A DNA stretch of 64,000 bases. It comes from Paludibacteraceae bacterium (lineage in GTDB: Bacteria; Bacteroidota; Bacteroidia; Bacteroidales; Paludibacteraceae). The stretch lies in NCBI GenBank assembly GCA_017446585.1, contig JAFSQL010000002.1, positions 29,084 through 93,083 of the forward strand, read 5' to 3'. The notes below the pieces were generated by a model. The model was not told the origin of the DNA. It was given only the letters and a program-made list of their open reading frames with translations, and did not search any database. The position numbers and the translations under genes are program-made. Position 1 is the stretch's first letter. Each line of letters starts with the position of its first letter. Shown here piece after piece: positions 9,027 to 52,609 of the stretch.

Positions 9027-11123
9027 ATGAAGAGAATAACACTACTGACACTTTTTAGTCTCGTTTTCACATTGACGAGCCTTGCTGCCACCAATACCAT
9101 TCTTGAATCGAAAAGCATCAGTTGCCATGGCATGGCAGACGGAGAACTCACATTCTCCGCTTCCGACCCTGCCGCTGCCGCATCCTACAAATACATGTGG
9201 TACCACGGCGCAGGAACCGACTCTCTGCTCACCAACTACTCCGACAGCAAGAGTTGTCCCGTGGCAAAAATGCTCTCGGCAGGCACTTACCACCTCATAG
9301 TCACCCTCGCTGATTCTACCATTTTGGACAGCACCTACACCCTCAAGCAACCGGATGCCATTTCGCTCGAACCCGTGTCAGTCACACACTGCTCCCATTG
9401 GGGGGCCAACCTCACCGATTGCAACGGAGCCATCAGTTTCACCGTGAGCGGCGGCATCTCTCCCTACTCCTATACTGTCTATGACTCCATCTACCAAATC
9501 ACCTACGCTAACAAAAGCAACCTCACCAACTTAGCGTCAGGCAACTATGACATCAGCGTCATTGACGCCAGCGGATGCACCCATGACACCGTCATCGAAA
9601 TCAAGAATAACGCCAACGGTGACTTGGGACTGCCACAAGGCATCCAATATATATGTTATCGCTCCTCGGGAAGCAATTCCATTTCCCTGCAACTGGATGA
9701 CATTTATTCTGAAACCGTGATGTGGGAAGAAGATGTTGAAAACCAAGAAACCGCCCTCTCCTATGTCCTCACCAAGGAAGCTTCTGAAGCCACGGCAGGC
9801 TACAATGGCAACGATGTCATTCGCACTTATCAGACGAAGTGGAAAACAGTCTCCGTCTATGACTCCATTACCGCCACCAGCCACGACAGCGTCATCTACT
9901 GGGTTGACACCTTCTTGCGCTACATGGCGGTCATTGACAAGAACGACGGCTCTGGCACTCAAATCGTGCTCTCCGCCACAAAGAATCTGTATTCCAAAAA
10001 TCCTCCCAAAGCCATGTTTCTCACGACGGGTCTCGTTCTTGACTCACTCATTGCTGAAGATGCCGCTCGATTCGGAAAAGACGTGTGGGGAAGAATCCCG
10101 TCAACCAAGGAATCAACAGGTTCTAAGACTGCCATGGAACCGGGTCTGCACAAGGTTCGCTACTGGGACAGCAATGGAAACGGCGGACGAAGCAGTTGGA
10201 CCATCATTGCCGCTGAATCGCCCGTGACGCTCAACGTCACGGAGACAAAGGTCAACAAATGCTTCCATGACACCATTGCCGCCATAACTGCCACAGCACA
10301 AGGCAGTTGGCAAGAAGATCCGAGCGCAAAGCATGACATTGCGCTTTCGCTCTCTGCAGTGGCAGGAACGGGGGCATCAATGGCAAAGGTCATCTCTCCA
10401 GGCTCTTCCAATGGCAATGGTTTGAACACAAACTCGTGGTCCAACCTCCCTGCCGGAATATACACCGTCAACGCCTCCATATCATCACCAACCGGCACCG
10501 CAGGTTCCTGCACATGCAGTCGCCAACAAAGCATTGAAATAACGCAACCGGACAGCCTCTATATCGTTTTCACCAACTCCAAGAAGGCTACATGCCCTTA
10601 CAAGAGCGACGCCTTTGTCACTGCCGACGTAGTCAATGCTCAAGGAAAAGTCTCCTACTCTTGGAGTAACGGCAGCACTGCGGCATCGGCGGCGGACATC
10701 ATGATGGGCAGTTACACGTTGACCGCTACCGACCAAAACGGTTGCACCGCTACCGACTCCATCTCATTGGGCGTGTCGCGCAAGAACTGCATCTACAATA
10801 TCGTCACACCTAACGGTGACGGATGCAACGACCTCTTTGACCTCACCGACTTCTGCATGGGATTCAAGATGAAGTGCAACATCTTTGACAACAACGGTCG
10901 AAAAGTGGCAACGTTGGACGAGAACAACTCCACTTGGGACCCACGTGAAGACACCTATGCGCCCCCTACCGGTCAAACCTCCAACTACACGGCATTCATT
11001 CGATTGATTAACACTGACGGCAAACGCATCGCTGACTTGGCGGAGACATTCTCCGTCATCTATGCTGACTACCCGAACCTCTCCACCACCCCTTGCAGCG
11101 AATCCGAATCCCAATGGTTCTAA
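9027..11123 (+). CDS. T9SS type-B C-terminal sorting domain protein with SprB-like repeats (gliding-motility-associated CTD family adhesin)
   Basis: Signal peptide. Cys-containing SprB-type repeats (CHGMADGELTF, CNGAISFTVSGG, ASGCTHD). C-terminal NIVTPNGDGCNDLFDL motif typical of the type-B CTD. Confidence 0.8.
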   Translation: MKRITLLTLFSLVFTLTSLAATNTILESKSISCHGMADGELTFSASDPAAAASYKYMWYHGAGTDSLLTNYSDSKSCPVAKMLSAGTYHLIVTLADSTILDSTYTLKQPDAISLEPVSVTHCSHWGANLTDCNGAISFTVSGGISPYSYTVYDSIYQITYANKSNLTNLASGNYDISVIDASGCTHDTVIEIKNNANGDLGLPQGIQYICYRSSGSNSISLQLDDIYSETVMWEEDVENQETALSYVLTKEASEATAGYNGNDVIRTYQTKWKTVSVYDSITATSHDSVIYWVDTFLRYMAVIDKNDGSGTQIVLSATKNLYSKNPPKAMFLTTGLVLDSLIAEDAARFGKDVWGRIPSTKESTGSKTAMEPGLHKVRYWDSNGNGGRSSWTIIAAESPVTLNVTETKVNKCFHDTIAAITATAQGSWQEDPSAKHDIALSLSAVAGTGASMAKVISPGSSNGNGLNTNSWSNLPAGIYTVNASISSPTGTAGSCTCSRQQSIEITQPDSLYIVFTNSKKATCPYKSDAFVTADVVNAQGKVSYSWSNGSTAASAADIMMGSYTLTATDQNGCTATDSISLGVSRKNCIYNIVTPNGDGCNDLFDLTDFCMGFKMKCNIFDNNGRKVATLDENNSTWDPREDTYAPPTGQTSNYTAFIRLINTDGKRIADLAETFSVIYADYPNLSTTPCSESESQWF

Positions 11124-14074: not shown

Positions 14075-15397
14075 CTACCAGTCCGTCATGACGACGCCCA
14101 AACCTGTCGAAGCCGAATCCAACGCCAAGACAACACCCTTCAAGGTCGGGTCTGGAACTACTCCCAATACCGATGAAGAAAACATCACCGGTGAAACAGG
14201 CACGGCAACCAACACCGTGTCACCGCTGTCGCTCACTCCATTTTGCATCAGATCCTGAATGTAATATTTCAGTGAGAATGCGTACGAGGAGTCAGACGAG
14301 TTATATACAGCCAGCATCGAATTGACATTGTCCGGAGCAGTGGATGCCTGCGAAAAATAGGAAGGGAACTTTGAAGAACGGAGCAGCAGCAAGTAACTTG
14401 GAACCCCGACTGTCGAAATCTTGTTGGACGCGTTCAGATATAACATGGCGGAATTGACCGACACTTTTTTGCCCGAACTTGTAAAGAAACCTCCTGTCTC
14501 AACACCAAATGTATTTTTGATAGATTCATAAGGAATCGTTACTTGAACAGATGACGACATTGGCGACATGACCAATGCCGATGATGTGTAACTGATTGAA
14601 GACGGAACCTGCGACAGGATATTGACCTGTCGAACGTTATCGTTGGCAGGGAAATCAACAGCATACGAGATAGTCGCTCCCGATGTAGCCTTGTACTTGA
14701 ATGAATAGGACAACGACACGGAACTAACCGTAATCAGTGCGCTTCCGCCCGTCGCTTTCAGATACAAACCGGGAAAGAATGACGTAAACGCATCCGTGCT
14801 CAAAAACGTTGCTTGCGCACTTTCTATCGCTTTGGTGATGTCTTCGGTCAACGTCGCGGGCAACACCACCGAGAACGACATATTCGACTTTGACAACGTC
14901 AACGTCGTGTCAACAAGCGACACTCCGCTCACAAACGACGAAACGTCCATGTCATACGTATAGTTGGTTCTGTAACCCAACTTGCTCGTCATCTTTTGCA
15001 ACTGGAGGTGTAATGTCGTGTCCGTCGCCGTTGACGTGTTTTTAATGTCCGCGAAGGAAATGTTCAAACTAAGTAGCGTGTCCGAAATGTTTGTCACACC
15101 ACCTTCTTGTGGCAACGAAATACCCCCAGGAGCGTCAAACTGCACCAACAAGTCACCATGAGTTTTTCCTATCGTGTCCGCGGTATATTCTCCCAACAAA
15201 AAAGTATCGGTCGAGACCTTGGTTGGAATCGACGTTAGCGTCCGTCCGGAGACAACCGTGCCAAAGAATGCGCTCTCAACGTTGATAGCGTCATGCGTTG
15301 GCTGCAATGTGTTCACAAAATCATCATCGTCGTGGCAAGCGGAAAAAAGCGTTACCACCATCATCGCAATCGAATATAGAGCAATACGAAAATTCAT
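14075..15397 (-). CDS. Hypothetical lipoprotein (possibly DUF4270-like)
   Basis: Lipobox ...VTLFSAC followed by HDDDD. Ser/Thr-rich and beta-rich, 440 aa. The family assignment is from memory only. Confidence 0.5.
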   Translation of the reverse strand: MNFRIALYSIAMMVVTLFSACHDDDDFVNTLQPTHDAINVESAFFGTVVSGRTLTSIPTKVSTDTFLLGEYTADTIGKTHGDLLVQFDAPGGISLPQEGGVTNISDTLLSLNISFADIKNTSTATDTTLHLQLQKMTSKLGYRTNYTYDMDVSSFVSGVSLVDTTLTLSKSNMSFSVVLPATLTEDITKAIESAQATFLSTDAFTSFFPGLYLKATGGSALITVSSVSLSYSFKYKATSGATISYAVDFPANDNVRQVNILSQVPSSISYTSSALVMSPMSSSVQVTIPYESIKNTFGVETGGFFTSSGKKVSVNSAMLYLNASNKISTVGVPSYLLLLRSSKFPSYFSQASTAPDNVNSMLAVYNSSDSSYAFSLKYYIQDLMQNGVSDSGDTVLVAVPVSPVMFSSSVLGVVPDPTLKGVVLALDSASTGLGVVMTDW

Positions 15398-15464
15398 AAC
15401 CTGATTTTAGTCTCGCAAAGATACGCAAAAGCATTGACTTTAATCAGCATAGGACTTAATAATA

Positions 15465-15497
15465 AAAATCCCGCGGAGTTATCCTCCGCGGGATTTT
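15465..15497 (-). terminator. Rho-independent terminator of the pectinesterase gene
   Basis: 14-bp stem AAAATCCCGCGGAG / CTCCGCGGGATTTT with a 5-nt loop. A T-run follows on the minus strand. Confidence 0.8.
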
Positions 15498-15519
15498 CTG
15501 ACAGGACAGAAACTGTCTT

Positions 15520-18330
15520 TTATTTGTTGACAACTGTTGTCACACCATCAATCACATAAATGCCAGCAGGAACATTGGCATTGCTGTCTTCACTAATCTG
15601 TTGTCCGTTCAACGTCCAAACGCCTTTGACGTTCGAGCCCGATGCATTGCCTGCCACCTCATTGACGGCAAGCGTGTTTTGCGAAACACTTGTCGGAGAA
15701 GTGCTACCGAACTCATTCATCGCAGCTACCTCATAGGTGTCGCCGGCGGAGAAGGAACCATCCACATAACTATTGGTAACAGACGTAGCATAATAAACGC
15801 CGTTCTTATAGATGATGTAGCCTACCGCATTGTCAGGAGCCGTCCAAGTCACGGTGCCACCCATCACGACCACGTCATCAATCGAATCCGGAGCAGCGGT
15901 ATAACCAGCACCGTTCCAAGCGTTTCCTGCGCCATAGTTGAAAGCGTTGTCTGAAATAGCGTAACGAATAGCCTCGGCATTGCTCAACTCAGAACTCCAA
16001 TCGACGAATGCAGACGTGTTCATGGCGGTTCCACCAGTTACGGTCAAGTTCTTGTGCGTGTAGATAGCGTCATTGATGGCACCACTCCAATCCGCCCAAC
16101 CCTTGGCTTGAATCATTCCTGACTCAAACTCACAATCAACATACGAGGTGAAGGCTCCCATCTTCCATGGACGACCGAGATAGTATTGCTTACGGCTTCC
16201 GAAACCGGTCGTGTCGCTGTAGTAAGACTTCACATTGTGGAACACGAGACCAAACTCGTATGTCTGACCCGAAGCCGCAGTCATATATTGACCACCGTCA
16301 ACATTGACCATGGCACCGCCTTCCATATAGTTCGTACCGCTACCGAACACATAGTCCGTACCGCCCTCTATGACACAATCTTTAAGATAAGTACGTTGCT
16401 TGTCACTCTTTGGATAGTAGGTATCTTGGAATGACACCATACGAACATTCTTAAGTGCAGCCACATAATTAGCCGACTTCGTCGGGTCAATCATTTCAAG
16501 GGCAACGGCCTGTTTGTTGCCTTCCGTACCGTTTATGTAGTCATAATCATTGCGAACGGTGAAATTCTCGCCATAGAAACCAGTCGCCGCCACAAGCATG
16601 GAGTAGCTGGCGTCAGTTCCCGTGGAAGTGATGCTCGTGTTGTATGTGCCGTTTTGCAACGTGGAGGTTTGGGCGCACTCATTGAACGTGATGATGACCT
16701 CGTCACGGCTTTGACCTATCAGGCTGACATTCTTCTTATAAACTACCAACTTCTCGTGATACGTACCTGGCTTCACGAAAATCACTGTACGTTGCGACTC
16801 GTCCGTGATAGCATCTATTGCGGCTTGGATGGTCGTATAGTCACCGTTTCCACCTGCGTCAACCACCTTGGTCACTGACAACGACGGTTGCGCCTTGGTG
16901 GTCATGGAGAATGAGAGTCCGCCAAAGATATTACCGCACGTGTCTGTCAATGCGGCATTTGGAATCGTTACACTTACCGTTGCATTGTAAGGGACGGCGG
17001 TGTAACTGAGACCCACCACCTTACCATAATTTGACAACACGGCTGGTTCTCCGTTGACCATTGCCGTTTGGGCGTTGACAACAATATCCTCGTCAAAAGT
17101 GAACGTGATGGCATCCGTCGCCTCCACGTCAGTTGCGCCGTCCGACACCTCCTGTGCCACCAGCACTGGAGCGGTAGCGTCACGACTTCCCGTGAGGAAC
17201 GTGAACGTTCTGTCGGTAGCGTTCCATACATTGCCAGTAAGGTCAGCAACTGCATTGGCAGGAATGGTCAAGGTGTTGGTAGCGTCATAGGCAAGACCAT
17301 TGTAAGAGATGGTCAGCACGTTGCCAGATACGGAAGGAGTCACCGTGGCGTATGTCACGCCATTGCCGAAAGTGATAGGATTCGTCTCGTCAAGGGCTAT
17401 GTCTTCGTCAAAGGTCAACTTAATCTTTCTTGCGTCCTCACCAAGGTCTTGGATGTGGATGGTCGAGTTCTCTTCCGGATTGATGCTCGTCAACGTTGGA
17501 GCCGTAGCGTCTTTATCGAAAGTCACGGAGAAAGACGCAGTGTTCGTATTGCCTTCAAGGTCTGCGACAGCACCTGCACCTACTATGAGAGCACCGGTTG
17601 CGGCAAAGCCCGAATAGCTTACGTAGAGACGGTTGCCCGCTGCTTTCACCTCTGTTACGGAAGCACCCGTAGCGGCTGCGAACGAAACAGCCGATGCGTT
17701 TGCCACTGTCACGACTTCATTGCATGTCAACTCAATAGTACCCGAACCGTCAATAGAGGCATTCTCCGCTGGTGAACTGGACAACACGACAGGATTAACA
17801 TCCGTCGCATTGCCGTCCGTGAACGAAAAACCGTAGAGATACGTCCCTTGCTGCGTCGTCAAGCGAATATAAAGCGCAGGCAGACTGGCGATAGAAGTGA
17901 CACCGTTCAGTTTTGTTGACGCCAAATGAGCGGCGGCATTGCCAGCCAAAGTCATCGTGTCAAAAGTCACCCACGTGGCATTATCCGTCGAATAGGCAAG
18001 CGTGTTCAAAGAAGGATTTCCGGAACTGCCGTTTTGGACTGCAATTTTCATCCCTCCCAACGACGTGATGCCAGTGTTGGACAAGTTAAACGTGAACGAT
18101 TTGGCACGCGGTGCGAACGTGTAAGCAATGGCGTCTATCGTCTTGCTACGAGCCGTCGACTTGTCGTTCGTCGGAATGGTGACGACACCGTCTGCCGAAG
18201 TCCAATTGGCTTGTCCCTGCGTTGGCGCATTCGAGCCATCGGTAGCAAACACATAACTGTAGTCCGCCGCCGAAAGGCCCATGCAACTCAAAAGCAACGA
18301 CGAAACCACGAATAATAACCGTTTTTTCAT
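15520..18330 (-). CDS. Pectinesterase (CE8) with N-terminal Ig-like repeats and a T9SS type-A C-terminal sorting domain
   Basis: CE8 motifs QAVAL, QDTYYP, GGTDYVFG and YYLGRPW. C-terminal tail ...VWTLNGQQI...PAGIYVIDGVTTVVNK resembles Por_Secre_tail. Signal peptide present. Confidence 0.85.
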   Translation of the reverse strand: MKKRLLFVVSSLLLSCMGLSAADYSYVFATDGSNAPTQGQANWTSADGVVTIPTNDKSTARSKTIDAIAYTFAPRAKSFTFNLSNTGITSLGGMKIAVQNGSSGNPSLNTLAYSTDNATWVTFDTMTLAGNAAAHLASTKLNGVTSIASLPALYIRLTTQQGTYLYGFSFTDGNATDVNPVVLSSSPAENASIDGSGTIELTCNEVVTVANASAVSFAAATGASVTEVKAAGNRLYVSYSGFAATGALIVGAGAVADLEGNTNTASFSVTFDKDATAPTLTSINPEENSTIHIQDLGEDARKIKLTFDEDIALDETNPITFGNGVTYATVTPSVSGNVLTISYNGLAYDATNTLTIPANAVADLTGNVWNATDRTFTFLTGSRDATAPVLVAQEVSDGATDVEATDAITFTFDEDIVVNAQTAMVNGEPAVLSNYGKVVGLSYTAVPYNATVSVTIPNAALTDTCGNIFGGLSFSMTTKAQPSLSVTKVVDAGGNGDYTTIQAAIDAITDESQRTVIFVKPGTYHEKLVVYKKNVSLIGQSRDEVIITFNECAQTSTLQNGTYNTSITSTGTDASYSMLVAATGFYGENFTVRNDYDYINGTEGNKQAVALEMIDPTKSANYVAALKNVRMVSFQDTYYPKSDKQRTYLKDCVIEGGTDYVFGSGTNYMEGGAMVNVDGGQYMTAASGQTYEFGLVFHNVKSYYSDTTGFGSRKQYYLGRPWKMGAFTSYVDCEFESGMIQAKGWADWSGAINDAIYTHKNLTVTGGTAMNTSAFVDWSSELSNAEAIRYAISDNAFNYGAGNAWNGAGYTAAPDSIDDVVVMGGTVTWTAPDNAVGYIIYKNGVYYATSVTNSYVDGSFSAGDTYEVAAMNEFGSTSPTSVSQNTLAVNEVAGNASGSNVKGVWTLNGQQISEDSNANVPAGIYVIDGVTTVVNK

Positions 18331-29066: not shown

Positions 29067-29105
29067 GAAAGTCTTCCTTCACATGCGAAAGAAGACTTTC
29101 TTTTT
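29067..29105. terminator. Bidirectional terminator between convergent genes
   Basis: GAAAGTCTTC ... GAAGACTTTC, a 10-bp stem flanked by an A-run and a T-run. Confidence 0.7.
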
Positions 29106-43886: not shown

Positions 43887-45398
43887 TCATTCCCCGTTCA
43901 ATTCCAAGACTTTCCGAAAACAAGCAATTCCCTCCTCCAGATTCTCGATTATCTTGGCGGCAATCTCATCAGGCTCGGGCAGGTTGTCAAGGTCGGTAAG
44001 GCTCTTGTCCTTTATCCAAAAAATATCGAGATTGGTTTTGTCGCGGGCGATTATCTCGTCGTAGGTGAACTTGCGCCAACGGCCTTCGGGATTCGACTCG
44101 CTCCACGTTTCGGTGCGCAGATTGCGGTTTTCTGGATTGTAGCACTTAATGAAATCTGCCAAATCCTCGAACGTGAGCGGCGACTTCTTAAGTGTGTGGT
44201 GAATGTTGGTGCGGTAGTCATAAATCCAAATGTCCTTGGTCTGCACATCCTTGCTGGCTGGGCGGTTATCGAAGAACAAAACATTGGCTTTCACGCCATT
44301 GGCATAGAAAATGCCTGTTGGCAGGCGCAGAATGGTGTGCAACTCGGTGGTTTTCATCAGTTGCTTGCGAATCTCCTCGCCCGCACCGCCTTCAAAAAGC
44401 ACATTGTCGGGCAGGACAACTGCCGCCTGACCATTGATTTTCAGCAAGGTCTTGATATGCTGAAGGAAATTCAACTGCTTGTTGGACGTGGTTTCCCAAA
44501 AATCCTGACGGTTGTAACTCAAATCCTCTTTCTCCACCTCGCCGTCCACGTTGGTAATGGTGATGCTGCTCTTTTTGCCGAAAGGCGGATTGGTGAGCAC
44601 ATAGTCGTAGCGGTTGCCTGTGTCGGACACAAGGGCATCGTTGGGCGAAATGAAATCCTCGCTGTCGAGTTCGCCAATGTTGTGCAGATAAAGGTTCATC
44701 AAGCACAGACGGCGCGTGTTGGCCACAATCTCGTTACCAAAGAAGGTCTTTTTCTTCAGAAACAGTTTCTGGTCTTTGTTGAGCGGCTGGCTGGCGATAT
44801 AGTCGTAGGCGGCAAGGAAGAAACCACCCGTTCCGCAGGCTGGGTCGATAATGGTCTTTTCGGGTTTGGGACGCACGCACGCCACCATAGCACGAATCAA
44901 CGCACGGGGCGTAAAATATTGTCCTGCACCGCTCTTGGTATCTTCGGCGTTCTTCTCCAAAAGGCCTTCGTAAATCTTGCCCTTCACATCGGAACCCATC
45001 AGCGACCAATTCTCGCGGTTGATCATCTCAATGACGCGCAAGAGTTTGGCAGGGTCTTGAATCTTGTTCTGGCTCTTGGTGTAAATCTGTCCCAACATTC
45101 CTTTTTCGGTGGCAAGGCTGCGAAGCATCTGCACATAGTAGGCTTCGAGTTCCGCACCGCGCTTGCTTGTGAGCGTTTCCCAATCGCACATTTCGCCATC
45201 GGCAATCTCCTTGCCCTCGGCATCCTTCAAGTGCGGGAACCTCAGTCCTTTGTTGTAGGGCGGACGGTTCATCTCGTCGGCCATCTTCAGGAAAAGCAGA
45301 TAGGTGATTTGCTCCAAATAATCGCCATAACTTACGCCATCGTCGCGCAGGACGTTGGCCATATTCCAGATTTTTGATATGATTGTTGATTCTGTCAT
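43887..45398 (-). CDS. hsdM: Type I restriction-modification system, DNA methyltransferase subunit M
   Basis: N-terminal HsdM_N (IWNMANVLRD...YLEQITYLLFLK), AdoMet motif DPACGTGGF and catalytic NPPFG. Start set at ATG 45398. Confidence 0.9.
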   Translation of the reverse strand: MTESTIISKIWNMANVLRDDGVSYGDYLEQITYLLFLKMADEMNRPPYNKGLRFPHLKDAEGKEIADGEMCDWETLTSKRGAELEAYYVQMLRSLATEKGMLGQIYTKSQNKIQDPAKLLRVIEMINRENWSLMGSDVKGKIYEGLLEKNAEDTKSGAGQYFTPRALIRAMVACVRPKPEKTIIDPACGTGGFFLAAYDYIASQPLNKDQKLFLKKKTFFGNEIVANTRRLCLMNLYLHNIGELDSEDFISPNDALVSDTGNRYDYVLTNPPFGKKSSITITNVDGEVEKEDLSYNRQDFWETTSNKQLNFLQHIKTLLKINGQAAVVLPDNVLFEGGAGEEIRKQLMKTTELHTILRLPTGIFYANGVKANVLFFDNRPASKDVQTKDIWIYDYRTNIHHTLKKSPLTFEDLADFIKCYNPENRNLRTETWSESNPEGRWRKFTYDEIIARDKTNLDIFWIKDKSLTDLDNLPEPDEIAAKIIENLEEGIACFRKVLELNGE

Positions 45399-45414
45399 AA
45401 ATTCTTGTCTGTCT

Positions 45415-46119
45415 TTACAATCCATAATACAATTTAATGGCGACACCGACAAATATTGCTATTGAAAAGCTCAACAATGTGCCTATCAATACATATTCCG
45501 ATTTCGCCTTGTCGCCTTCGGCAAAACGCAAAAGTGATTTTGCGGCTATGATAAATCCAACGGCTTCATATTGTCCCAGTAGCACAAACACCAACGAAAG
45601 AAGCCGTTCCACAATACCTATCAGTTTTCCGGCATTAGGCAAGTCTTCTGTATTATTATCGTCACTTCCTTTGCTAACCTTAATGTTTGCAACCTTGATA
45701 ATTTCTTTGATTATTATGTTGGAGGGCTTTAAACATACCAGAAAGCCCAACAACATAGCTATATATTTTTCTTCTACACCGCTCACACAATCAGGTAAGT
45801 TGCTTTTCCACAGATAGCAAACCGTCACAATTACAAGCAAGTGTATCAACTGGTCAATAAAGAAAATACCCTTACACTTGGAAGCATAACATTTCATGGC
45901 ATCGATTAGCAAATGAGAAACCGCTATTATTAATGCCACCCACCAAAAACTGAATGAAAACGAGAACAGCCAAGCGCAAACAAAGGTTATCAGAACATGT
46001 ATATAAAGTTTCGGAGACTTAAAAACTCTGTTTTCTTTGTCGGCGCACGACTTATCTGTCTGAAAATAGAAATCACTGATCGTGTGTGCAATTATTTGTA
46101 ATAGTAAAAACCGTATCAT
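45415..46119 (-). CDS. DUF3307-family polytopic membrane protein
   Basis: About 7 hydrophobic segments. N-terminal QIIAHTISDFYFQ plus later SHLLIDA and IDQLIHL His/Asp motifs, as recalled for DUF3307. Adjacent to a SatD-like gene, the usual pairing. Confidence 0.6.
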   Translation of the reverse strand: MIRFLLLQIIAHTISDFYFQTDKSCADKENRVFKSPKLYIHVLITFVCAWLFSFSFSFWWVALIIAVSHLLIDAMKCYASKCKGIFFIDQLIHLLVIVTVCYLWKSNLPDCVSGVEEKYIAMLLGFLVCLKPSNIIIKEIIKVANIKVSKGSDDNNTEDLPNAGKLIGIVERLLSLVFVLLGQYEAVGFIIAAKSLLRFAEGDKAKSEYVLIGTLLSFSIAIFVGVAIKLYYGL

Positions 46120-46121
46120 AA

Positions 46122-46814
46122 CTAAAAGTTTATTTGTTCGTAATACTTCAGCAACTGCTCTACAGCATTCCAGCCAAATGAGGTGGAATGTTGATTAACA
46201 GCAGGTTGCTTAATCCCCATTTTTTTGGATATTTCAATTTCGCTCATTCCTAACAGACTATAATATATAACCTCACATTGACGCTCCGATGCTCGCTTAA
46301 ACAGTATATCCAAAAAACCCATATACGCATTTATCTGCTGCGCCAATTTTGCATCCGAAGAATCAAAAAACAAGGTGTTTTTTATAACTATTTTCGATTT
46401 GTTCGAAGTCCGCTGGCGTTCTATTGCCCTTCCTGAGGCATATATGGCCTCACCATCCAACATATTTGTCCGCTTATCGGCAATGCGCATTTCACCTACA
46501 GCAATGGCGATTCTAACCCCGTATGTTTTAAACACACTCAAACGCTTCTTATCTACATTTTGACCCACACAGTCTGTATCAACCTTGAACTTTTTTATCA
46601 TCGCTTTTAAAAGCAGGGCTATACGCAATGAGTTTTGTGGATTACCTATATAAATTTCCACACTATCACCTTTGCTTAATCGGCCCCATGTGTCTTCGTA
46701 TTCTTTTTCTATTTGCTCAACAAAGACCTCTATCTCGTTCTGCAATTGACTTAAAGCACAAGGAGTCAGTTCGGTAGAAGACACTATGTCCGCTGAAATT
46801 GTAGCTCTATTCAT
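46122..46814 (-). CDS. SatD-family protein: cyclase-fold-like N-terminal domain plus C-terminal helix-turn-helix
   Basis: ISADIVSST and KGDSVEIYIG resemble the two Asp motifs of class III cyclase / SatD proteins. RIAIAVGEM...DGEAIYASGRAI block. C-terminal ERQCEVIYYSLLGMSEIEISKKMGIKQPAVNQH resembles a LuxR/sigma-70 region-4-type HTH. ATG 46814 preferred over the TTG at 46832. Confidence 0.6.
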   Translation of the reverse strand: MNRATISADIVSSTELTPCALSQLQNEIEVFVEQIEKEYEDTWGRLSKGDSVEIYIGNPQNSLRIALLLKAMIKKFKVDTDCVGQNVDKKRLSVFKTYGVRIAIAVGEMRIADKRTNMLDGEAIYASGRAIERQRTSNKSKIVIKNTLFFDSSDAKLAQQINAYMGFLDILFKRASERQCEVIYYSLLGMSEIEISKKMGIKQPAVNQHSTSFGWNAVEQLLKYYEQINF

Positions 46815-46829
46815 AAATTTTATTTTTTG

Positions 46830-46837
46830 CAAAGATA
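46830..46837 (-). promoter_or_regulatory. -7 promoter box (TAtcTTTG) for the satD-like/DUF3307/hsdM transcription unit
   Basis: The reverse complement of caaagata is TATCTTTG, 15 nt upstream of ATG 46814 and 6 nt downstream of repeat unit 1. Confidence 0.5.
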
Positions 46838-46843
46838 CTAAAT

Positions 46844-46926
46844 TTTATAAGCTAAACAACTTATAAACATAATTTATAAGCTAAACAACTTATAAACTGC
46901 ATTTATAAGCCAAACGGCTTATAAAT
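46844..46926. repeat. Three 25-bp palindromic units phased every 29 bp (putative operator array)
   Basis: Units at 46844-46868 and 46873-46897 are identical (TTTATAAGCTAAACAACTTATAAAC). The unit at 46902-46926 is TTTATAAGCCAAACGGCTTATAAAT. Each carries inverted arms TTATAAG(C)...(G)CTTATAA. Confidence 0.85.
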
Positions 46927-46929
46927 TCC

Positions 46930-48063
46930 TCACACTAACTCCCCGCTAAACGCCTTCTTGAGTATGCTTTGCCTGAGTGCCTCGGCTTGTTGCAGTGCGT
47001 TTTCAATGTAGGTTTCGCTTGCCGTTGCCTGCGACAGGCGCGATTCGATTTCCTTTACTATGCGCTGCTGCTCAGCGAGCGGGGGAAGGGGGATTTCGAT
47101 TAAACGAACTTTTTTTATTCCAAAAGCGGCTTGCGTTGTCGCTTTTTTTCCATCAAATAGCTGTTTCTCAACAATATTAGACCTAAATGTATTATACAAA
47201 AATTTTGCGTTTATCTTGTCTGTTGGTTGAATTAATACCACATTTGCCGATAATGCATACTCTTGCGGAAGAATAACATTGACGGGATTTCCAATTGTAC
47301 CGATTTTTCCTATTATAAAGTCACCTTCTTTTATAGAATACCTCTCTTTATGCTCTTTAAGAACATCTTTTGAAACCAGTCTTGCATTTTTTAAATTTAT
47401 GGTATTCGTTATGTAATCACAATCCTTAATGCTGACAAAAGGTATTCCATCTTTTTGTATTTTAGGCGTTCTATGACTTGGCTCTGGATCAATTGCATCC
47501 GCCACATCTCCCAACTTCACCATCTCCCATTTCCCCTCGTCATTATTCAGCCAATGGTTGAGCACGGCCTGCCTGTAGGTTTTGAGTTGTTGCTGTGCGG
47601 TGCGAAGGTGCTGCACGGCCTTGTCGAGTTCGGCGAAAAGGGTTTCTATGCGGGTTTCTATGGCGTGCTGGGTGGCGAGTGGGGGAAGGGGAATTTGCAA
47701 GTCTTCCGCGTTGTTTATAGTAACTTGTGGCTGTGCTGTCCCTGTAACCAACTTGGTTTTATTAGTTGCTTGTAATGTATAATACAAATACTTTTTGTTG
47801 ACCTTATTTTCCTCTTTAGGTGTGATTACCAATGAATTATTCGTAATAAAGCACTGTTTAGGCGAAATGTTGATTTTACCACTATATGCCCCTCGACAAG
47901 AGATTAAGACCTGTTCTTCTTCATATAGAAAAGAATCATAATATCCTATTATTCCATTTGCACCAAATACTGGGAATCCTTTGGGTTTCAAATTTTTTGT
48001 AGGCAATCCTTTCCCATATACGATTCCACAAATTTCGCCTAATTTATATGTTGGGTAATTCAT
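46930..48063 (-). CDS. hsdS: Type I restriction-modification system, specificity subunit S
   Basis: Two target-recognition domains separated by conserved helices (LPPLATQHAIETRIETLFAELDKA...; LPPLAEQQRIVKEIESRLS...LRQSILKKAFSGELV). Confidence 0.9.
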   Translation of the reverse strand: MNYPTYKLGEICGIVYGKGLPTKNLKPKGFPVFGANGIIGYYDSFLYEEEQVLISCRGAYSGKINISPKQCFITNNSLVITPKEENKVNKKYLYYTLQATNKTKLVTGTAQPQVTINNAEDLQIPLPPLATQHAIETRIETLFAELDKAVQHLRTAQQQLKTYRQAVLNHWLNNDEGKWEMVKLGDVADAIDPEPSHRTPKIQKDGIPFVSIKDCDYITNTINLKNARLVSKDVLKEHKERYSIKEGDFIIGKIGTIGNPVNVILPQEYALSANVVLIQPTDKINAKFLYNTFRSNIVEKQLFDGKKATTQAAFGIKKVRLIEIPLPPLAEQQRIVKEIESRLSQATASETYIENALQQAEALRQSILKKAFSGELV

Positions 48064-48653
48064 TTCAAGGTATTATTGTTAATGTCATCTGACAGCATTA
48101 CGTATGTGTTTCCTAAAATAACAAGAATGAAAATAATGAATTGAAAACTCCAATAATAGATAACGCCATTTATAGCATATTTACAGATTGTTCGGATTAT
48201 ATCCCCATATCCACACAAATTAAGTCGTGGAACTTGTGGTGAGAAATATATTACCGCCATTAGGAATATGAGTAATAGAGCCAAAACAATTGTGTATGAT
48301 ATTTGGCGTATTAAAAATTTTGAAAAATTCCTATAACGAATCAGATAGTTTCTTGCTTCTTCATTTTTGTCATCCTTCAATTGTTCTTTTTTTGCATTGT
48401 ACCGTTCTGTTACGATAAATAACAATCCGAAAAACAACCCAGCAAAAATGCTAATGCTGGTTATTAAATACGTGGCTATATCATTAGTTATAAAAATACC
48501 TGCAACAAGTAATAATGCACATACGAGCAATGGCAAGACATACATATAAAGCACGTATGTTTTGCTTTCCTCACGAGCGTTATCATCTTTGTATTTTAAT
48601 GATTCAAACGCCTCCTTTCTGATTTCTAATATTCTTATTTTAGTCCACATCAT
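48060..48653 (-). CDS. Hypothetical four-TM membrane protein (cargo ORF-B)
   Basis: Four hydrophobic segments with a K/E-rich cytoplasmic loop. ATGA overlap with the hsdS start and 14-nt overlap with ORF-A. No recognisable family. Confidence 0.55.
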   Translation of the reverse strand: MMWTKIRILEIRKEAFESLKYKDDNAREESKTYVLYMYVLPLLVCALLLVAGIFITNDIATYLITSISIFAGLFFGLLFIVTERYNAKKEQLKDDKNEEARNYLIRYRNFSKFLIRQISYTIVLALLLIFLMAVIYFSPQVPRLNLCGYGDIIRTICKYAINGVIYYWSFQFIIFILVILGNTYVMLSDDINNNTLK

Positions 48654-49617
48654 TTGGTGTATATCCTATTTCTTTTTTTATCTTCTCTAAGATTGCATCT
48701 GTATGCTCCCTTATTTTCCCATAATCAGGATATTGCTTACCATTTTCTTTCAAACTCTCTGGCAAAATTATATTTGGCAGAATATCAAGATTTCTAGACA
48801 AACGCGCTTGCGATTGCCGTCCTGATTCATCTTTATATGTTGCAATTACATCATAATCATGTCCCTCAGCATTCATCTCAAAAGAAGACAAATCAGCATC
48901 TATTGGCTGATTTTTATCCACCTGTTTCCAAAATTCTTCTATTGGAACATCAAATCCTGAAATTTTTATTTCAACTTTCAATCCTTCAAATGACGCAAAT
49001 AACTGGTTCAATGCACCTCTTGCTTTCTCGCTCATCTTTGTTTTTGATAATATCAAATTTTGGACTATGCTTTTTTTCTTAAATTTTTCCTTATATTCTT
49101 TCGGAACGTACTTCATTTTGTCAACTGAATAGCCATAACCTCTGATAAAAGATTTTATCTTCTGCTCTATCAAAGAAACCACACCAACTTCTGTATAACT
49201 TTGAACCATCAAAACACCATGGTCTAAATCATACGGCATCCATAACTTAAAATAGTATGGTAGTGTAGAAACTTCATCATCCGAAATAGACTTACCAATA
49301 GACTTTGAACTGGAAGATTTATAAACATCTTGCTCTACTCCTGTAAGTCCGCCAACCAACATACCATCTATAATATTCATTTGTGGCATTGAATTAACAG
49401 ATTGAACCGCAATTGCTTTTGTTTCCTCCCTGTTTTTTATAAACTTATCGTTAAAAGACTTTATAAACAGATTATTAAACTTACTAAAGGCTGCGTTTTT
49501 ATCTGTTTCAGAAGTAACGTCTTTCAACATATCTTTATAAGTAACAGGGTCTTTACTTGCTGTTTTCTTAATGACAAATTGATATATTGTCAACTTCAAA
49601 GTGTAACCTTTCTCCAT
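48640..49617 (-). CDS. Hypothetical soluble protein, 325 aa (cargo ORF-A)
   Basis: Long uninterrupted ORF in an AT-rich segment, co-oriented with and overlapping ORF-B. No TM segment, no Walker A, no nuclease or HEPN motif seen by eye. Confidence 0.55.
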   Translation of the reverse strand: MEKGYTLKLTIYQFVIKKTASKDPVTYKDMLKDVTSETDKNAAFSKFNNLFIKSFNDKFIKNREETKAIAVQSVNSMPQMNIIDGMLVGGLTGVEQDVYKSSSSKSIGKSISDDEVSTLPYYFKLWMPYDLDHGVLMVQSYTEVGVVSLIEQKIKSFIRGYGYSVDKMKYVPKEYKEKFKKKSIVQNLILSKTKMSEKARGALNQLFASFEGLKVEIKISGFDVPIEEFWKQVDKNQPIDADLSSFEMNAEGHDYDVIATYKDESGRQSQARLSRNLDILPNIILPESLKENGKQYPDYGKIREHTDAILEKIKKEIGYTPNDVD

Positions 49618-49672
49618 ATTTATATTTTTTGTGCAAACCGTAGTTACGTAAATTCAACAAAATCATTGTTTT

Positions 49673-49703
49673 ATAATTGTGCAACCACTGGTTGCACAAT
49701 TAT
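49673..49703. promoter_or_regulatory. Perfect 14-bp inverted repeat with 3-nt spacer between hsdR and ORF-A
   Basis: ATAATTGTGCAACC-ACT-GGTTGCACAATTAT. A related half-site TTGTGCAAACC lies at 49629-49639. No U-tract follows on either strand. Confidence 0.6.
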
Positions 49704-49727
49704 GTGGATATTTATCTGGTAGTGTAC

Positions 49728-52529
49728 TCATGCTACTAATATTTCATTTAGTTCCTCAATTATCGCCATCATCTCGTTACCAAACAGCTGATACATCTTG
49801 CCTCGTCCGCCTTGGGCGTCGAAAGGGGTGTAGTCCAAATCGTCAATGTCAAGGTGGTAACTGCTCACAATGTGGTCTTTTATCATTCGCAGCCATTCAA
49901 TCTGCTCGGGCGTGAAGCGGTTGCGGTTACCCGTGTGCTGGCGGAACAGCCACGCGTTGAAATTCCGCTCAATGGTGTTGTTGAAGGCCTCAAGACTTTG
50001 GTCAATGCCGCAGGCGTGGCGCACCAACGAAACCAATGCCGTAAGTTCCGTAACAGGGCGGTTGGCTTTCACCTTCTCAATAGCACAATAGGCATCCCAA
50101 ACGTACATCGGTGCTAACATCGGCTTGTCCTGCTTCAGTTTTTCGAGCAACTCCTGCGCCATCTGAAGGGTGAGATTGCGGTGGTTGTAGGGCTGGTTGT
50201 AGAAAATGCTCAACGCCATAATCTCGTCTTTATGCTGTTCCAAATACTCGGTGAAATCGTGCACCGTCTCTTTCGCCTTTTCGAGTGTGAAACTGTTGAA
50301 CTCGCTTTTCAGCACCGTGTCAAGGTTCACGGTGTCTATCTTCTGGTCGTGCAGGTTGCGCACGGTCACAATGTATTCGTTCAACTCGCCGTTGAAGGTG
50401 CTGCTGGCAACATCAGCCAAACGCTGCTGCGCCTTTCTGCGTATCTCATCCTCAATGGCGGGGGTTAGTTCGGTTGGCGGAATCTTTTTCAGTTCTGCCT
50501 GCGCTGCGTCGTCGATTTTGTCAGGGTCGAAAGCCGATAGCAGTTCGGCACTCATCTGCCCCAACGTCTTACCCCGCGACAAGGTTTCTATCTTTTCCTT
50601 CTCTTTTTCGGTAACCTCTTTGTTCAATCGAATCAAGCGATTGGCCAACGAAGTGAACAAATCTTCTTCCGTCACGCCCATAGTGACAGCACCCAACAAA
50701 TCTTTCAGCGGAACGGTGGGCTTGCGTTCCAACGGTCGACTGTCGGTTTTCTTGGTCTGCGTCACGCCCACGGCATCCACAATCACAAAATGCGTTTTGG
50801 TCTGCGCCGTGCGGCTCACCAATTGCAGCGAGTCGGGGTTTATGGTTCGTGTGCCACGGCCCTTCATCTGCTCGAAATAGTTGGCACTGCGCACATCGCG
50901 CATAAAGAGCAGTACTTCGAGCGGCTTCACGTCGGTGCCTGTGGCTATCATATCCACCGTGACGGCAATGCGCGGATAATATTGGTTGCGGAAGCGGTTG
51001 AGCACCGATTTGGGGTCCTCATCAATCTTGTAGGTTACCTTCTTGCAGAAGTCGTTGCCTTCGTCGAACTCCTCACGCACAATCTTGATAATGTCGTCGG
51101 CGTGGCTGTCGGTCTTGGCGAAAATGAGCGTCTTGGGCACTTCGTACTGCCCGCTCTCATCGTAGCGGTTCGGGAAAATCTCCTCCATCAGCGCCTTGCG
51201 GAACTGGCGGATAACGGTGCGTATCTGGCTCGGATTCACCACCGAACGGTCCAAATCGTTCTTTTTATATTCGGTGTCCTCATCCACCTGCTGCCAACGG
51301 GTTTTGCGAGTGGCTTTGTCACGATAGTCGATATGCCATCCCGCCTTGATTAGCCCGCCGTTTTTCGATATTTCCGTTTCAATGGAATAGACATCGTACG
51401 GCACATTCACGCCATCCACCACTGATTGCTCGTAGGTGTATTCGCTCACCACATTTTCGTTGAAGAAGCCGAAGGTGCGCTTGTCGGGCGTGGCGGTCAG
51501 ACCGATAAGGAACGCATCGAAATAGTCGAGCACCTGTTTCCAAAGGTTGTAAATGCTGCGGTGGCACTCATCAATCACCACAAAATCAAACTGCTCAATA
51601 GGCACTTTGGCGGTGTATTCCACAGGAATGGCTTGCTGGTCCTTCAGTCTCTGCTGCAGCCACGACGATTCGTTCGGGTTGTCGGTTTCGGCGGATTCGT
51701 CCAACTCTTCGCCTTTCAGAATCGAATAAAGCCTTTGTATGGTGGAAATGCACACTTGACTATCATTGGCAATGTAACTCGACGAGAGCCGTTGCACATT
51801 GTAGAGTTCGGTGAACTTGCGGTTGTCGTCGTTCGGGCGGAAGTTCATAAATTCCTGTTCCGCCTGTTCGCCCAAATTGCGTGTATCTACAAGAAACAGA
51901 ATACGTTTGGCCTTGGCGAATTTCAGCAGACGGTAAATGAACGTGATAGCAGTGAAAGTCTTGCCCGCACCCGTCGCCATCTGAATCAGCGCCCGCGGGC
52001 GGTTATTGCGGAACGATTCTTCGAGATTCGTCACCGCCTTAATCTGTGCTGGTCGAAGTCCCGTTGTGTCAAGTGCAGGAAAGTCCTGCAAACGGCATCG
52101 AAGGCTCATGCCGTTGCACATCCATTCGGCAAAAGTTTCGGGTCGGTGAAACGCAAACACCACACGGCTGCGGGGTTTGGGGTCGCTGTAGTCGGTGAAG
52201 TGGGTCAACGTGCCTGTTGTTTCATAAACGTAGTTCAGTGGCTCGTTGTTCAGGTATTTCAGCTTGGCATTAGCATACCGCACCGATTGCTCCTCAACCA
52301 CAGTGATATTGACAGCTTCCTCCTCGCGTTTCGCCTCGATAATGCCCATAGGTTTGCGGTTAACAAACAGCACATAGTCGGCGGGTCCAGCATCGGTCTG
52401 ATACTCACGAACCGCCACACCAATTCCCGCCGAAAAGTCTATCTTGCTTTTCGACTGAATCTTCCAACCTGCCTGTTCAAGCAGACTGTCGATTTTATCG
52501 CGTGCTATCTGTTCGGGGTTTTGATTCAT
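49728..52529 (-). CDS. hsdR: Type I restriction-modification system, endonuclease subunit R
   Basis: N-terminal HSDR_N region (ARDKIDSLLEQAGW), helicase motif I MATGAGKT, DEAD-like VIDECH, motif III TATP, and an EcoEI_R_C-like C-terminus. Start set at ATG 52529. Confidence 0.9.
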   Translation of the reverse strand: MNQNPEQIARDKIDSLLEQAGWKIQSKSKIDFSAGIGVAVREYQTDAGPADYVLFVNRKPMGIIEAKREEEAVNITVVEEQSVRYANAKLKYLNNEPLNYVYETTGTLTHFTDYSDPKPRSRVVFAFHRPETFAEWMCNGMSLRCRLQDFPALDTTGLRPAQIKAVTNLEESFRNNRPRALIQMATGAGKTFTAITFIYRLLKFAKAKRILFLVDTRNLGEQAEQEFMNFRPNDDNRKFTELYNVQRLSSSYIANDSQVCISTIQRLYSILKGEELDESAETDNPNESSWLQQRLKDQQAIPVEYTAKVPIEQFDFVVIDECHRSIYNLWKQVLDYFDAFLIGLTATPDKRTFGFFNENVVSEYTYEQSVVDGVNVPYDVYSIETEISKNGGLIKAGWHIDYRDKATRKTRWQQVDEDTEYKKNDLDRSVVNPSQIRTVIRQFRKALMEEIFPNRYDESGQYEVPKTLIFAKTDSHADDIIKIVREEFDEGNDFCKKVTYKIDEDPKSVLNRFRNQYYPRIAVTVDMIATGTDVKPLEVLLFMRDVRSANYFEQMKGRGTRTINPDSLQLVSRTAQTKTHFVIVDAVGVTQTKKTDSRPLERKPTVPLKDLLGAVTMGVTEEDLFTSLANRLIRLNKEVTEKEKEKIETLSRGKTLGQMSAELLSAFDPDKIDDAAQAELKKIPPTELTPAIEDEIRRKAQQRLADVASSTFNGELNEYIVTVRNLHDQKIDTVNLDTVLKSEFNSFTLEKAKETVHDFTEYLEQHKDEIMALSIFYNQPYNHRNLTLQMAQELLEKLKQDKPMLAPMYVWDAYCAIEKVKANRPVTELTALVSLVRHACGIDQSLEAFNNTIERNFNAWLFRQHTGNRNRFTPEQIEWLRMIKDHIVSSYHLDIDDLDYTPFDAQGGRGKMYQLFGNEMMAIIEELNEILVA

Positions 52530-52601
52530 GAACGAAAATTTATTAGCTAATGTGCCATAAATTAATCGCACAGCGAGTACGCTAACGATTGCAACTATAT
52601 G

Positions 52602-52609
52602 CAAATATA
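52602..52609 (-). promoter_or_regulatory. -7 promoter box (TAtaTTTG) upstream of hsdR
   Basis: The reverse complement of caaatata is TATATTTG, about 72 nt upstream of ATG 52529. Confidence 0.4.

Follow-up and report, generated by a model that had tools for sequence, protein, structure and literature searches.

Contig JAFSQL010000002.1 (GenBank assembly GCA_017446585.1), from a Paludibacteraceae bacterium of the order Bacteroidales, carries a type I restriction-modification (R-M) operon that is interrupted twice by genes of other kinds. The stretch analysed here, referred to as the window, comprises 64,000 nucleotides (positions 29,084 to 93,083 of the forward strand), and coordinates count from its first letter unless another locus is named; homologous loci are cited by L numbers where they need to be told apart. 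Seven open reading frames (ORFs) lie on the minus strand of the window in the order hsdR, ORF-A, ORF-B, hsdS, SatD-like, DUF3307, hsdM. There are two inserts to account for: (i) ORF-A/ORF-B, between hsdR and hsdS, a credible but unnamed candidate for a defence function, and (ii) SatD-like/DUF3307, between hsdS and hsdM, a widespread Bacteroidota cassette that occurs mostly in non-defence contexts and is not recognisable as a defence effector. That defence genes can be embedded in type I R-M operons is already known; what is new is the candidate system in the first position and the odd regulatory cassette in the second.

A type I restriction-modification locus with two inserts

The restriction subunit is encoded by hsdR (49728..52529), with 933 amino acids (aa) counted from its ATG. 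The protein matches ResIII (3.9e-42), EcoEI_R_C (7.7e-40), Helicase_C and, weakly, HSDR_N (6e-6) in Pfam, and REase_I (2.8e-55) in PADLOC. A D...EAK nuclease motif can be read in its translation, as can GAGKT and DECH; the N-terminal PD-(D/E)xK nuclease, the SF2 helicase/translocase core and the family C-terminal domain expected of a type I HsdR are all present. The methyltransferase subunit gene hsdM (43887..45398, 503 aa) matches N6_Mtase (1.3e-69) and HsdM_N (4.4e-12) in Pfam and MTase_I (6.5e-191) in PADLOC, and its translation shows DPACGTGG and NPPF. The specificity subunit gene hsdS (46930..48063) matches Methylase_S in two stretches (1.4e-40, Pfam) and Specificity_I (3.4e-52, PADLOC), giving the HsdM and the HsdS with two target-recognition domains that a type I system requires. 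Judging from its reading frames, the R-M system of this uncultured bacterium is apparently intact.

The initial annotation of the window had described this locus as a type I R-M operon interrupted twice, and both its gene assignments, which are solid by Pfam and PADLOC, and its map hold. The ORF listing and the translations contain all seven minus-strand ORFs at the claimed coordinates: besides the R-M genes these are ORF-A (48640..49617), ORF-B (48060..48653), the SatD-like gene (46122..46814) and DUF3307 (45415..46119). The junctions are also as claimed. A 110-bp spacer separates hsdR from ORF-A; ORF-A and ORF-B overlap by 14 nt, and ORF-B and hsdS by 4 nt (ATGA). A 115-bp spacer follows hsdS, then come gaps of 2 nt between the SatD-like gene and DUF3307 and of 16 nt between DUF3307 and hsdM. 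In an identical metagenome contig (L010), independent gene calls give the same boundaries, including the 933-aa hsdR. The annotation had further considered hsdM and hsdS to be adjacent as a rule, and in two other members of this R-M family (L104, L105) they are indeed only 27 nt apart; the base gene order of the family is hsdR-hsdS-hsdM.

The GC content of hsdR (0.515) and hsdM (0.505) is at the level of the host (0.495 across the window), and that of hsdS is 0.405. Both cargo pairs are low in GC (31-39%) and therefore look foreign: 0.327 for ORF-A and 0.313 for ORF-B, against 0.391 for the SatD-like gene and 0.376 for DUF3307. This difference between the two pairs suggests that they were acquired separately. 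The borders of the locus are quiet, as had been claimed. The housekeeping flanks, recQ and an Omp85-family gene, are seen at the two borders by Pfam on L010, and no integrase is found among the genes called within 10 kb either side of ORF-A on that contig, a range that reaches ~5 kb past the locus on the Omp85 side. The 38-58 kb region of the window is free of tRNA genes, and an Rfam scan of the locus finds no family. The closest relatives are metagenome-assembled genomes of uncultured Bacteroidales from rumen and gut.

ORF-A/ORF-B and the hsdR-hsdS slot

ORF-A encodes a soluble protein of 325 aa, and ORF-B a 197-aa membrane protein with four predicted transmembrane (TM) segments (residues 37-55, 63-81, 118-136 and 163-181 by hydropathy). 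The two belong together. Of 69 loci in which a full-length ORF-A homologue is followed by another gene, 64 have an ORF-B-like partner directly after ORF-A (same strand, 160-225 aa, at least 3 TM segments, gap of -23 to +11 nt), down to ~25% ORF-A identity. ORF-A/ORF-B is an obligate two-gene module. Comparison of the window with L006 shows that ORF-B is the better conserved of the two, with 84% identity (window 48060-48653; L006 10965-11558) against 62% for ORF-A, as expected if ORF-A is the faster-evolving component, perhaps a sensor. Conserved motifs of ORF-B are ITSISIFAGLFF and YVML.DDIN; the protein scores 1.8e-8 against TIGR01218, just below the cutoff of that model, and its homologues are all named 'hypothetical' and have no Pfam match.

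ORF-A belongs to an uncharacterised family of considerable size. Pfam, PADLOC, NCBIfam and PHROG offer no family for it. A word-indexed search returns 55 relatives, all 'hypothetical', and the few with source names are from Bacteroidota. A profile search of 1.84e9 representative proteins finds 880 clusters at E<=1e-3, of which 373 reach E<=1e-10; these ~880 clusters (50% identity) are nearly all metagenomic, and most of the best 150 matches are 310-345 aa long. Neither 34 close relatives nor 63 diverse ones have a Pfam match, the 63 diverse ones match no PADLOC model, and profile searches of the Protein Data Bank (PDB) sequences with the family give nothing. The AlphaFold2 model of ORF-A is confident (pLDDT 85.6, pTM 0.80), and a Foldseek search with it finds no significant match in the PDB (best E 2e-3, TM-score <0.25); partial START/Bet-v1-like fold matches at this level are too weak to be trusted. 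In BFVD the model does match several uncharacterised phage-metagenome proteins (best E 7.5e-19, TM-score 0.56). Only 5 ORF-A loci are found in IMG/VR, with truly viral origin not confirmed, and tblastn searches of GenBank phages and plasmids with ORF-A and one distant relative find no match.

A third gene of ~347 aa stands right after ORF-B in one sub-clade of the module (L126 11496-12545, L136, L140, L147), and probably accounts for the NA37 matches that Pfam gives among the neighbours. A BFVD match to a 'recombination associated protein' (E 8e-5), together with these NA37 neighbours, had raised the idea that ORF-A itself is a relative of RdgC/NA37. This idea is rejected: hhalign of ORF-A against the conserved third gene gives a probability of 0.1% and shows no relation between the two.

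The position of the module is shared with recognised defence genes. Sister loci of the R-M system, found in a scan of GTDB species representatives with a profile of the SatD-like protein, have HsdR 83-98% and HsdM 94-98% identical to those of the window but differ in the cargo between hsdR and hsdS. In L019 the slot holds the Lamassu genes LmuA and LmuB (8e-93, 7e-167). In L026 it holds RhuM (PDC-S05, 1e-141) with a RelA/SpoT protein (PDC-S33, 3e-61), the PDC codes being those of catalogued phage defence candidates (PDCs). L023 and L027 have a protein with a helix-turn-helix (HTH) and M78 domain that resembles PD-Lambda-2_B (9e-51), accompanied in L027 by a Ser/Thr kinase resembling PD-T4-6 (6e-29), and L028 has a HATPase_c_3 protein. 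A more distant locus, L057 (HsdR 57%, HsdM 69% identity), carries an uncharacterised 730-aa protein together with a protein that combines SLFN/AlbA_2, HATPase_c_4 and winged-HTH domains. This R-M family has a defence-gene hot spot between hsdR and hsdS: a single R-M scaffold exchanges Lamassu, RhuM with RelA/SpoT, a kinase and ORF-A/ORF-B in one place, as a set of natural variants.

Four loci of this R-M family carry ORF-A/ORF-B itself in the slot: the window, L006, L104 and L105. The ATGA coupling of ORF-B to hsdS is kept in the latter three, with HsdS only 33-42% identical to that of the window. An extra gene precedes ORF-A in each of these three loci. In L006 it encodes a 155-aa GIY-YIG protein (9354-9821); in L104 and L105 it overlaps the hsdR stop and encodes an uncharacterised 356-aa protein (L104 8893-9963) that is not RhuM-like.

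Outside this R-M family, the module recurs in the company of mobile and defence genes. It lies on an integrase/NERD island in Cellulophaga lytica, among TraG/VirD4, ArdC and RadC genes of a region resembling an integrative and conjugative element (ICE; L002), and on an integrase/excisionase element with DUF3800 and a C5-methyltransferase/EcoO109I R-M system. One locus adjoins an M78-HTH pair, an SLFN-type helicase and an integrase; others adjoin RhuM (including L109 and L118) or C5 methylase genes, and one copy directly follows an MvaI/BcnI restriction gene. A scan of 149 non-redundant neighbouring proteins, from the first ~45 of 65 non-R-M ORF-A loci, gives recurrent families that are nearly all hallmarks of mobile genetic elements (MGEs) or defence: AAA_15, Phage_integrase, NA37, DEAD/ResIII and AAA_21, and further, each occurring more than once, HTH_17, RhuM, N6_Mtase, Resolvase and Methylase_S.

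The inference of defence from such positions has a precedent. Payne et al. used 'guilt-by-embedding' to predict defence functions for unknown cassettes in type I R-M, BREX and DISARM loci (10.1101/2024.01.29.577857). ORF-A/ORF-B has the corresponding properties, being embedded itself, sharing its slot with known defence systems and lying in defence or MGE contexts elsewhere; the shared position of known and catalogued defence genes is what makes it a defence candidate. Two of the PDCs of Payne et al., which are included in PADLOC-DB v2, occupy the very same slot in a sister locus (PDC-S05 and PDC-S33). That neither pair could be assigned to a named system, as the initial annotation had stated, agrees with PADLOC 2.0.0, which gives no match for any of the four cargo proteins. 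Since the 63 ORF-A relatives are likewise without a match, the proteins are not among the PDCs catalogued in that release, and Kiwa, Pycsar, CBASS effectors and catalogued PDCs are rejected on this ground.

The closest parallel in architecture is TgvAB, a two-gene module embedded in the type I R-M operon of the V. cholerae island VPI-2; comparable embedded genes are placed between hsdR and hsdS (PMC11411939). As with ORF-A/ORF-B, two genes of initially unknown function interrupt the operon, and both TgvAB genes are needed. TgvAB is, however, a GmrSD-like type IV restriction enzyme, whereas ORF-A/ORF-B has no nuclease or NTPase domain. The hsd loci that harbour PrrC, RloC and the Campylobacter 'rlo' genes offer another parallel in location. 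PrrC and RloC are anticodon nucleases, and ORF-A/ORF-B differs from them in combining a soluble protein of undescribed fold with a four-TM protein. In RexAB and Kiwa, a soluble protein of ~280-330 aa is encoded beside a four-TM membrane protein of ~145-200 aa, and here the likeness to ORF-A/ORF-B is one of layout only. Kiwa has the TM gene first, unlike the module, in which the soluble protein comes first, and no KwaA or KwaB match (PADLOC) or DUF4868 match (Pfam) is found for the window proteins or the 34 and 63 relatives. For RexA the comparison was one of folds: RexA is absent from the 50 listed Foldseek PDB matches of ORF-A (to E ~0.14), none of which reaches E<=0.001.

The SatD-like/DUF3307 cassette and its palindromes

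The first gene of the second insert encodes a 230-aa protein that the initial annotation had called satD-like. This label can be kept only in a loose sense: Pfam SatD (PF16264) does not match the protein even at E<=10, and it matches weakly in only 2 of 29 relatives (best E 1.4e-4), making it a remote relative at best. The AlphaFold2 model is confident (pLDDT 89.8, pTM 0.90) and resolves two domains. The first, at the N-terminus, has the fold of class III nucleotidyl cyclases (Foldseek probability 1.0, best E 4.7e-5), with matches to OaPAC, bPAC, Ma1120, Rv1900c and GC-A at target TM-scores of ~0.5-0.56 and a root-mean-square deviation of ~3.1-3.4 over ~137 columns for Ma1120 and Rv1900c, as expected of a cyclase-homology domain. 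Residues D9, D50 and R129 are invariant in the family; from their sequence context, D9 and D50 may be the two metal aspartates and R129 the cyclase arginine. An equally invariant tyrosine (Y125) stands where the cyclase asparagine is expected, by a motif reading and not by a residue-level structural alignment. The C-terminal domain is an HTH of the LuxR/sigma-70-region-4 type (GerE in 27 and Sigma70_r4_2 in 24 of the 29 relatives), and relatives carry the NCBI name 'RNA polymerase subunit sigma-70'.

The second gene encodes a polytopic membrane protein of 234 aa with ~6-7 hydrophobic segments. Residues 5-104 match DUF3307 (PF11750) at 6e-25 and 88.1 bits, against a cutoff of 23, and the protein also matches PHROG 2470 'membrane protein' (6.3e-14). 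DUF3307 comes directly after the SatD-like gene in 77 of 80 loci at the species level and is its obligate partner.

The 115-bp spacer upstream of the cassette had been described as containing phased palindromes and a TAnnTTTG box, and it contains both. There are exactly three copies of TTATAAG-N8-CTTATAA, at 46845, 46874 and 46903, making up a proposed operator array (46845..46924) with a 29-bp period. No others occur in the 64 kb of the window, for which 0.08 are expected, and none of 100 shuffles reaches three. The proximal palindrome abuts TAtcTTTG (46830..46837, minus strand), 16 nt upstream of the SatD-like ATG. TAnnTTTG is the -7 consensus of Bacteroides promoters, and this box is a likely promoter element of the Bacteroidetes type; a sigma-70 promoter scan was ignored because it is not applicable to Bacteroidetes.

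The array is a general property of the cassette. Most of the 79 genome loci examined have 2 to 4 tandem palindromes upstream of the SatD-like gene, and the TAnnTTTG box recurs at the same position in many of them. In IMG/VR, 13 contigs (L189-L201) carry the cassette together with palindromes, their truly viral origin not being confirmed. The half-sites vary by lineage (TTATAAG, TTATCGG, TATAGG, TATCAG, ACATAA, AGTAAGC, ACACCC, TATAGAC), the IMG/VR contigs adding the forms ACACCC..GGGTAT and TATAGAC..GTCTATA, while the copies within one locus share the same arms. A strict test, which demands perfect 6-nt arms and at least two copies with the same arms, is positive in 42 of 79 loci as compared with 1 of 74 control windows downstream and an average of 0.54 in shuffles. 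Such a pattern is what operators co-evolving with a dimeric DNA-binding protein would leave. Class III cyclase domains are obligate dimers, which fits palindromic sites. The alternative of RNA hairpins or terminators is rejected as the main explanation because the arms are common within a locus and variable between lineages, and because the array precedes the promoter where the cassette stands alone.

The cassette may also govern hsdM. In the window, no TAnnTTTG box lies in the junction ahead of hsdM, which probably relies on the cassette promoter for its expression. The same tight junction is found in other loci, where hsdM starts 16-25 nt after DUF3307 (L019, L022, L023, L026-L029) or ~40 nt after it (L057). 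The SatD-like protein is predicted to bind DNA and act as a repressor, and hsdM is predicted to be co-transcribed.

An R-M system is an exceptional location for the cassette: hsdM lies downstream of it in only 8 of 80 loci, namely the eight just listed. Three further species loci (L021, L025, L030) retain the cassette with nothing but an HsdM_N remnant of 71-85 aa, as do metagenome loci L011-L014 (~9414-9698); the remnants overall have 71-94 aa, and hsdR and hsdS are gone. The cassette thus outlives the R-M system. In 16 species loci it is located directly upstream of V-ATPase genes, with its operator array (L037, L039-L043, L046, L048, L050-L056, L059; for example L040 8730-17420). The genes after it are A, B, possibly D, I and possibly K, with matches of 7e-129 for subunit A and 9e-38 for subunit I. 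Two small co-oriented genes precede the cassette in these loci and resemble subunit E and DUF2764, neither identity being confirmed; for subunit E, a PDB sequence search with the small upstream gene gave no confirmation. The cassette therefore apparently lies inside the V-ATPase operon. Other neighbours, as read from sequences and gene calls, are pabB-like, large glycosidase-like and ABC-ATPase-like genes.

The two inserts can be separated from each other. L104 and L105 carry hsdR, the 356-aa gene, ORF-A, ORF-B, hsdS and hsdM, with no cassette between the last two, so the inserts are independent. Conversely, the R-M loci L019-L029 have the cassette and other cargo in the hsdR-hsdS slot. No target-site duplications are detected when the hsdS-hsdM junction of L104 and L105 is compared with the window.

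Several known regulators and signalling pairs resemble the cassette in part. In enteropathogenic Escherichia coli, RptR represses an island with a type I R-M system and DarTG2 via three repeats with a palindromic core (PMC12255303). Both cases have a DNA-binding regulator inside a type I R-M island and three repeated sites at an R-M promoter. RptR, however, is small, stands alone at the island head and is strongly tied to type I R-M, whereas the SatD-like protein has a cyclase-fold domain and a DUF3307 partner, is encoded between hsdS and hsdM, and occurs mostly outside R-M loci. In the streptococcal sat operon, SatE is presumably a DUF3307 protein. The window resembles that operon in its downstream gene, a clear DUF3307, and in the few relatives of the upstream gene that weakly match SatD; it differs in that its own upstream protein has no such match. 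S. pyogenes satD is an 'essential accessory' gene in a meta-analysis of transposon sequencing (PMC11323703), and S. suis SatD is annotated as a DNA-binding protein (PMC12005413). The cyclase fold, the conserved Asp pair and Arg that a motif reading places at catalytic positions, and the membrane partner recall class III adenylyl and guanylyl cyclases and Pycsar defence, which pairs a cyclase with a TM effector. Unlike these, the SatD-like protein has an HTH and operators, a tyrosine at the position where a motif reading expects asparagine, and mostly non-defence contexts. PADLOC has no Pycsar match for either protein, and DUF3307 is the only Pfam match of the membrane protein, with no cyclic-nucleotide-binding domain detected. 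By analogy, the layout and operators of the pair would also fit a type II toxin-antitoxin (TA) module.

A proposed landing pad and its alternatives

The best explanation for the locus as a whole, to which we give a probability of about one half, is an R-M landing pad that holds a defence module and an autoregulated cassette. The R-M system would have received two low-GC cassettes, each acquired independently. ORF-A/ORF-B would act against phages or MGEs in the manner of systems with a cytosolic sensor and a small membrane effector: ORF-A, the proposed sensor, would detect a cue of infection and act on ORF-B, the proposed membrane effector or anchor, so that the membrane is compromised and infection is aborted. 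Both genes would be co-transcribed with hsdR and hsdS. The SatD-like protein would dimerise through its cyclase-fold domain and bind the operator array abutting its own promoter with its HTH, thereby autoregulating the cassette and, by read-through, hsdM. The cassette would be a portable and persistent unit, possibly with an addiction-like character. Addiction is plausible in the light of the essentiality of satD, the persistence of the cassette, its patchy spread and its low GC, and is retained as a subordinate hypothesis and rival because it rests on a remote homologue.

The initial annotation had regarded both cargo pairs as defence candidates. One half of this proposal is strengthened, since defence systems occupy the slot of ORF-A/ORF-B in sister loci and the module recurs in R-M and integrase contexts. 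The other half is largely contradicted by the distribution of SatD-like/DUF3307, in R-M loci in ~8 of 80 cases and upstream of V-ATPase genes in 16.

Several points weigh against the landing-pad explanation. The enrichment of defence and MGE genes around the module lacks a formal control set and is therefore supportive and not decisive; several module loci are flanked by housekeeping genes. The anti-phage activity of ORF-A/ORF-B is predicted from context. No catalytic or ligand-binding motif can be recognised in ORF-A, so that the division into sensor and effector is drawn by analogy with other systems, and KwaB, like RexA, is absent among the Foldseek PDB matches listed for ORF-A. As to the cassette, only 42 of the 79 loci pass the strict palindrome test, the remainder having imperfect arms that are seen by eye. 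That its protein binds DNA, that it acts as a repressor and that hsdM is transcribed from the cassette promoter are all predictions, and read-through from hsdS is possible because no convincing terminator is predicted between hsdS and the cassette. Finally, the cassette is found between hsdS and hsdM in two clades with only ~49% identity (L057/L015 and the clade of the window), a recurrence that could reflect a real functional tie to R-M and that the landing-pad explanation may underrate.

This recurrence, in at least 8 species, also speaks for an unlikely alternative in which both pairs serve in defence, SatD-like/DUF3307 being a cyclic-nucleotide system of the Pycsar kind or a TA/abortive-infection system that cooperates with R-M. 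The cyclase-fold protein would make or sense a signal, and the DUF3307 protein would kill or arrest the cell. The class III cyclase fold with its invariant D9, D50 and R129 and the polytopic membrane partner agree with such a scheme, but PADLOC matches neither protein to Pycsar cyclases or effectors, the membrane protein has no detectable cyclic-nucleotide-binding domain, and the catalytic asparagine is replaced by the invariant tyrosine (again by motif and not by structural alignment). Resemblance to type II TA modules comes from the antitoxin-first order and the operator-controlled promoter, and the 'essential accessory' status of S. pyogenes satD is as expected for the repressor or antitoxin of a toxic partner (PMC11323703); streptococcal SatD, however, is only a remote relative. 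The pair is low in GC, patchily distributed and present on the 13 IMG/VR contigs, but ~70 of the 80 species loci are outside R-M, and the 16 upstream of V-ATPase show conserved synteny.

A doubtful alternative, though one to be taken seriously, concerns the other pair: ORF-A/ORF-B may be MGE cargo unrelated to defence, such as an entry or surface exclusion, a maintenance/addiction or an envelope function, that hitch-hikes in the slot. The ICE-like region in which the module sits between TraG/VirD4-type genes (L002), the integrase-bearing islands and the small polytopic membrane partner would suit this, as would the loci with housekeeping flanks only and the lack of a nuclease, NTPase or other classical defence domain. 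It is harder to reconcile with the bona fide defence systems in the same slot of sister loci and with the recurrence of the module beside type I and type II R-M genes and RhuM. Most genes embedded in type I R-M, moreover, are neither mobility nor housekeeping genes (10.1101/2024.01.29.577857). Quite improbable is a third proposal, that SatD-like/DUF3307 is a signalling pair for envelope or ion homeostasis, similar to an extracytoplasmic function sigma/anti-sigma pair and recruited to control downstream operons; its location in R-M loci would then be a regulatory innovation that puts methylation and restriction under conditional control. The sigma-70 region 4/LuxR-like HTH, the membrane-protein gene immediately after it and the sigma-70 names given by NCBI point in this direction. 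Co-oriented genes follow shortly downstream in both R-M and V-ATPase contexts, the conserved operator array implies tight transcriptional control, and the streptococcal sat genes have a historical link to acid tolerance, as cited in PMC11323703. In many loci, however, the gene downstream of the cassette is on the opposite strand, so that control of downstream operons is not general, and the R-M architecture of L104 and L105 manages without the cassette. A bolder combination, which we hold to be rather unlikely, makes SatD-like/DUF3307 a portable 'operon-capturing' switch that inserts ahead of co-oriented genes (hsdM here, V-ATPase A-K elsewhere) and subjects them to a membrane or nucleotide signal, and makes ORF-A/ORF-B a new anti-phage system with a new fold and a four-TM effector. 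Under that combination, the captured switch upstream of hsdM would make DNA methylation and restriction conditional.

The two inserts matter for separate reasons. Embedding in type I R-M is an established route of discovery, to which this locus adds a well-delimited candidate; should ORF-A/ORF-B defend its host, it would be a new system for Bacteroidota, which are dominant in gut and rumen but little explored in their phage defences. The cassette offers the first testable handle on the long-unexplained pairs of the SatD/DUF3307 type, and its position hints that a captured regulator may control the methylase in these R-M systems.

Some further features of the locus and its relatives complete the description. 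About 3.5 kb downstream of the R-M locus in L015 (identical with L057), positions 14353-16536 encode a 727-aa protein that faintly matches Piwi. It is possibly a prokaryotic Argonaute, which suggests a larger defence island at that site. In the window, a TAtaTTTG box (52602..52609, minus strand) upstream of hsdR is a second putative -7 box of the Bacteroidetes type, as read from the sequence. The spacer between hsdR and ORF-A contains a perfect 12-3-12 palindrome, AATTGTGCAACC-AGT-GGTTGCACAATT (49675..49701), with a degenerate second copy at ~49625-49650 adjoining the ORF-A ATG. Its core, GCAACCAGTGGTTGC, is found 14 nt before ORF-A in L104 and L105 (~9965-9985) and not at more distant ORF-A loci; the palindrome could be an operator or a terminator stem. 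Antisense to hsdM there is a 393-aa ORF (44196-45377, plus strand), which we interpret as a by-product of the hsdM reading frame and not as a gene.

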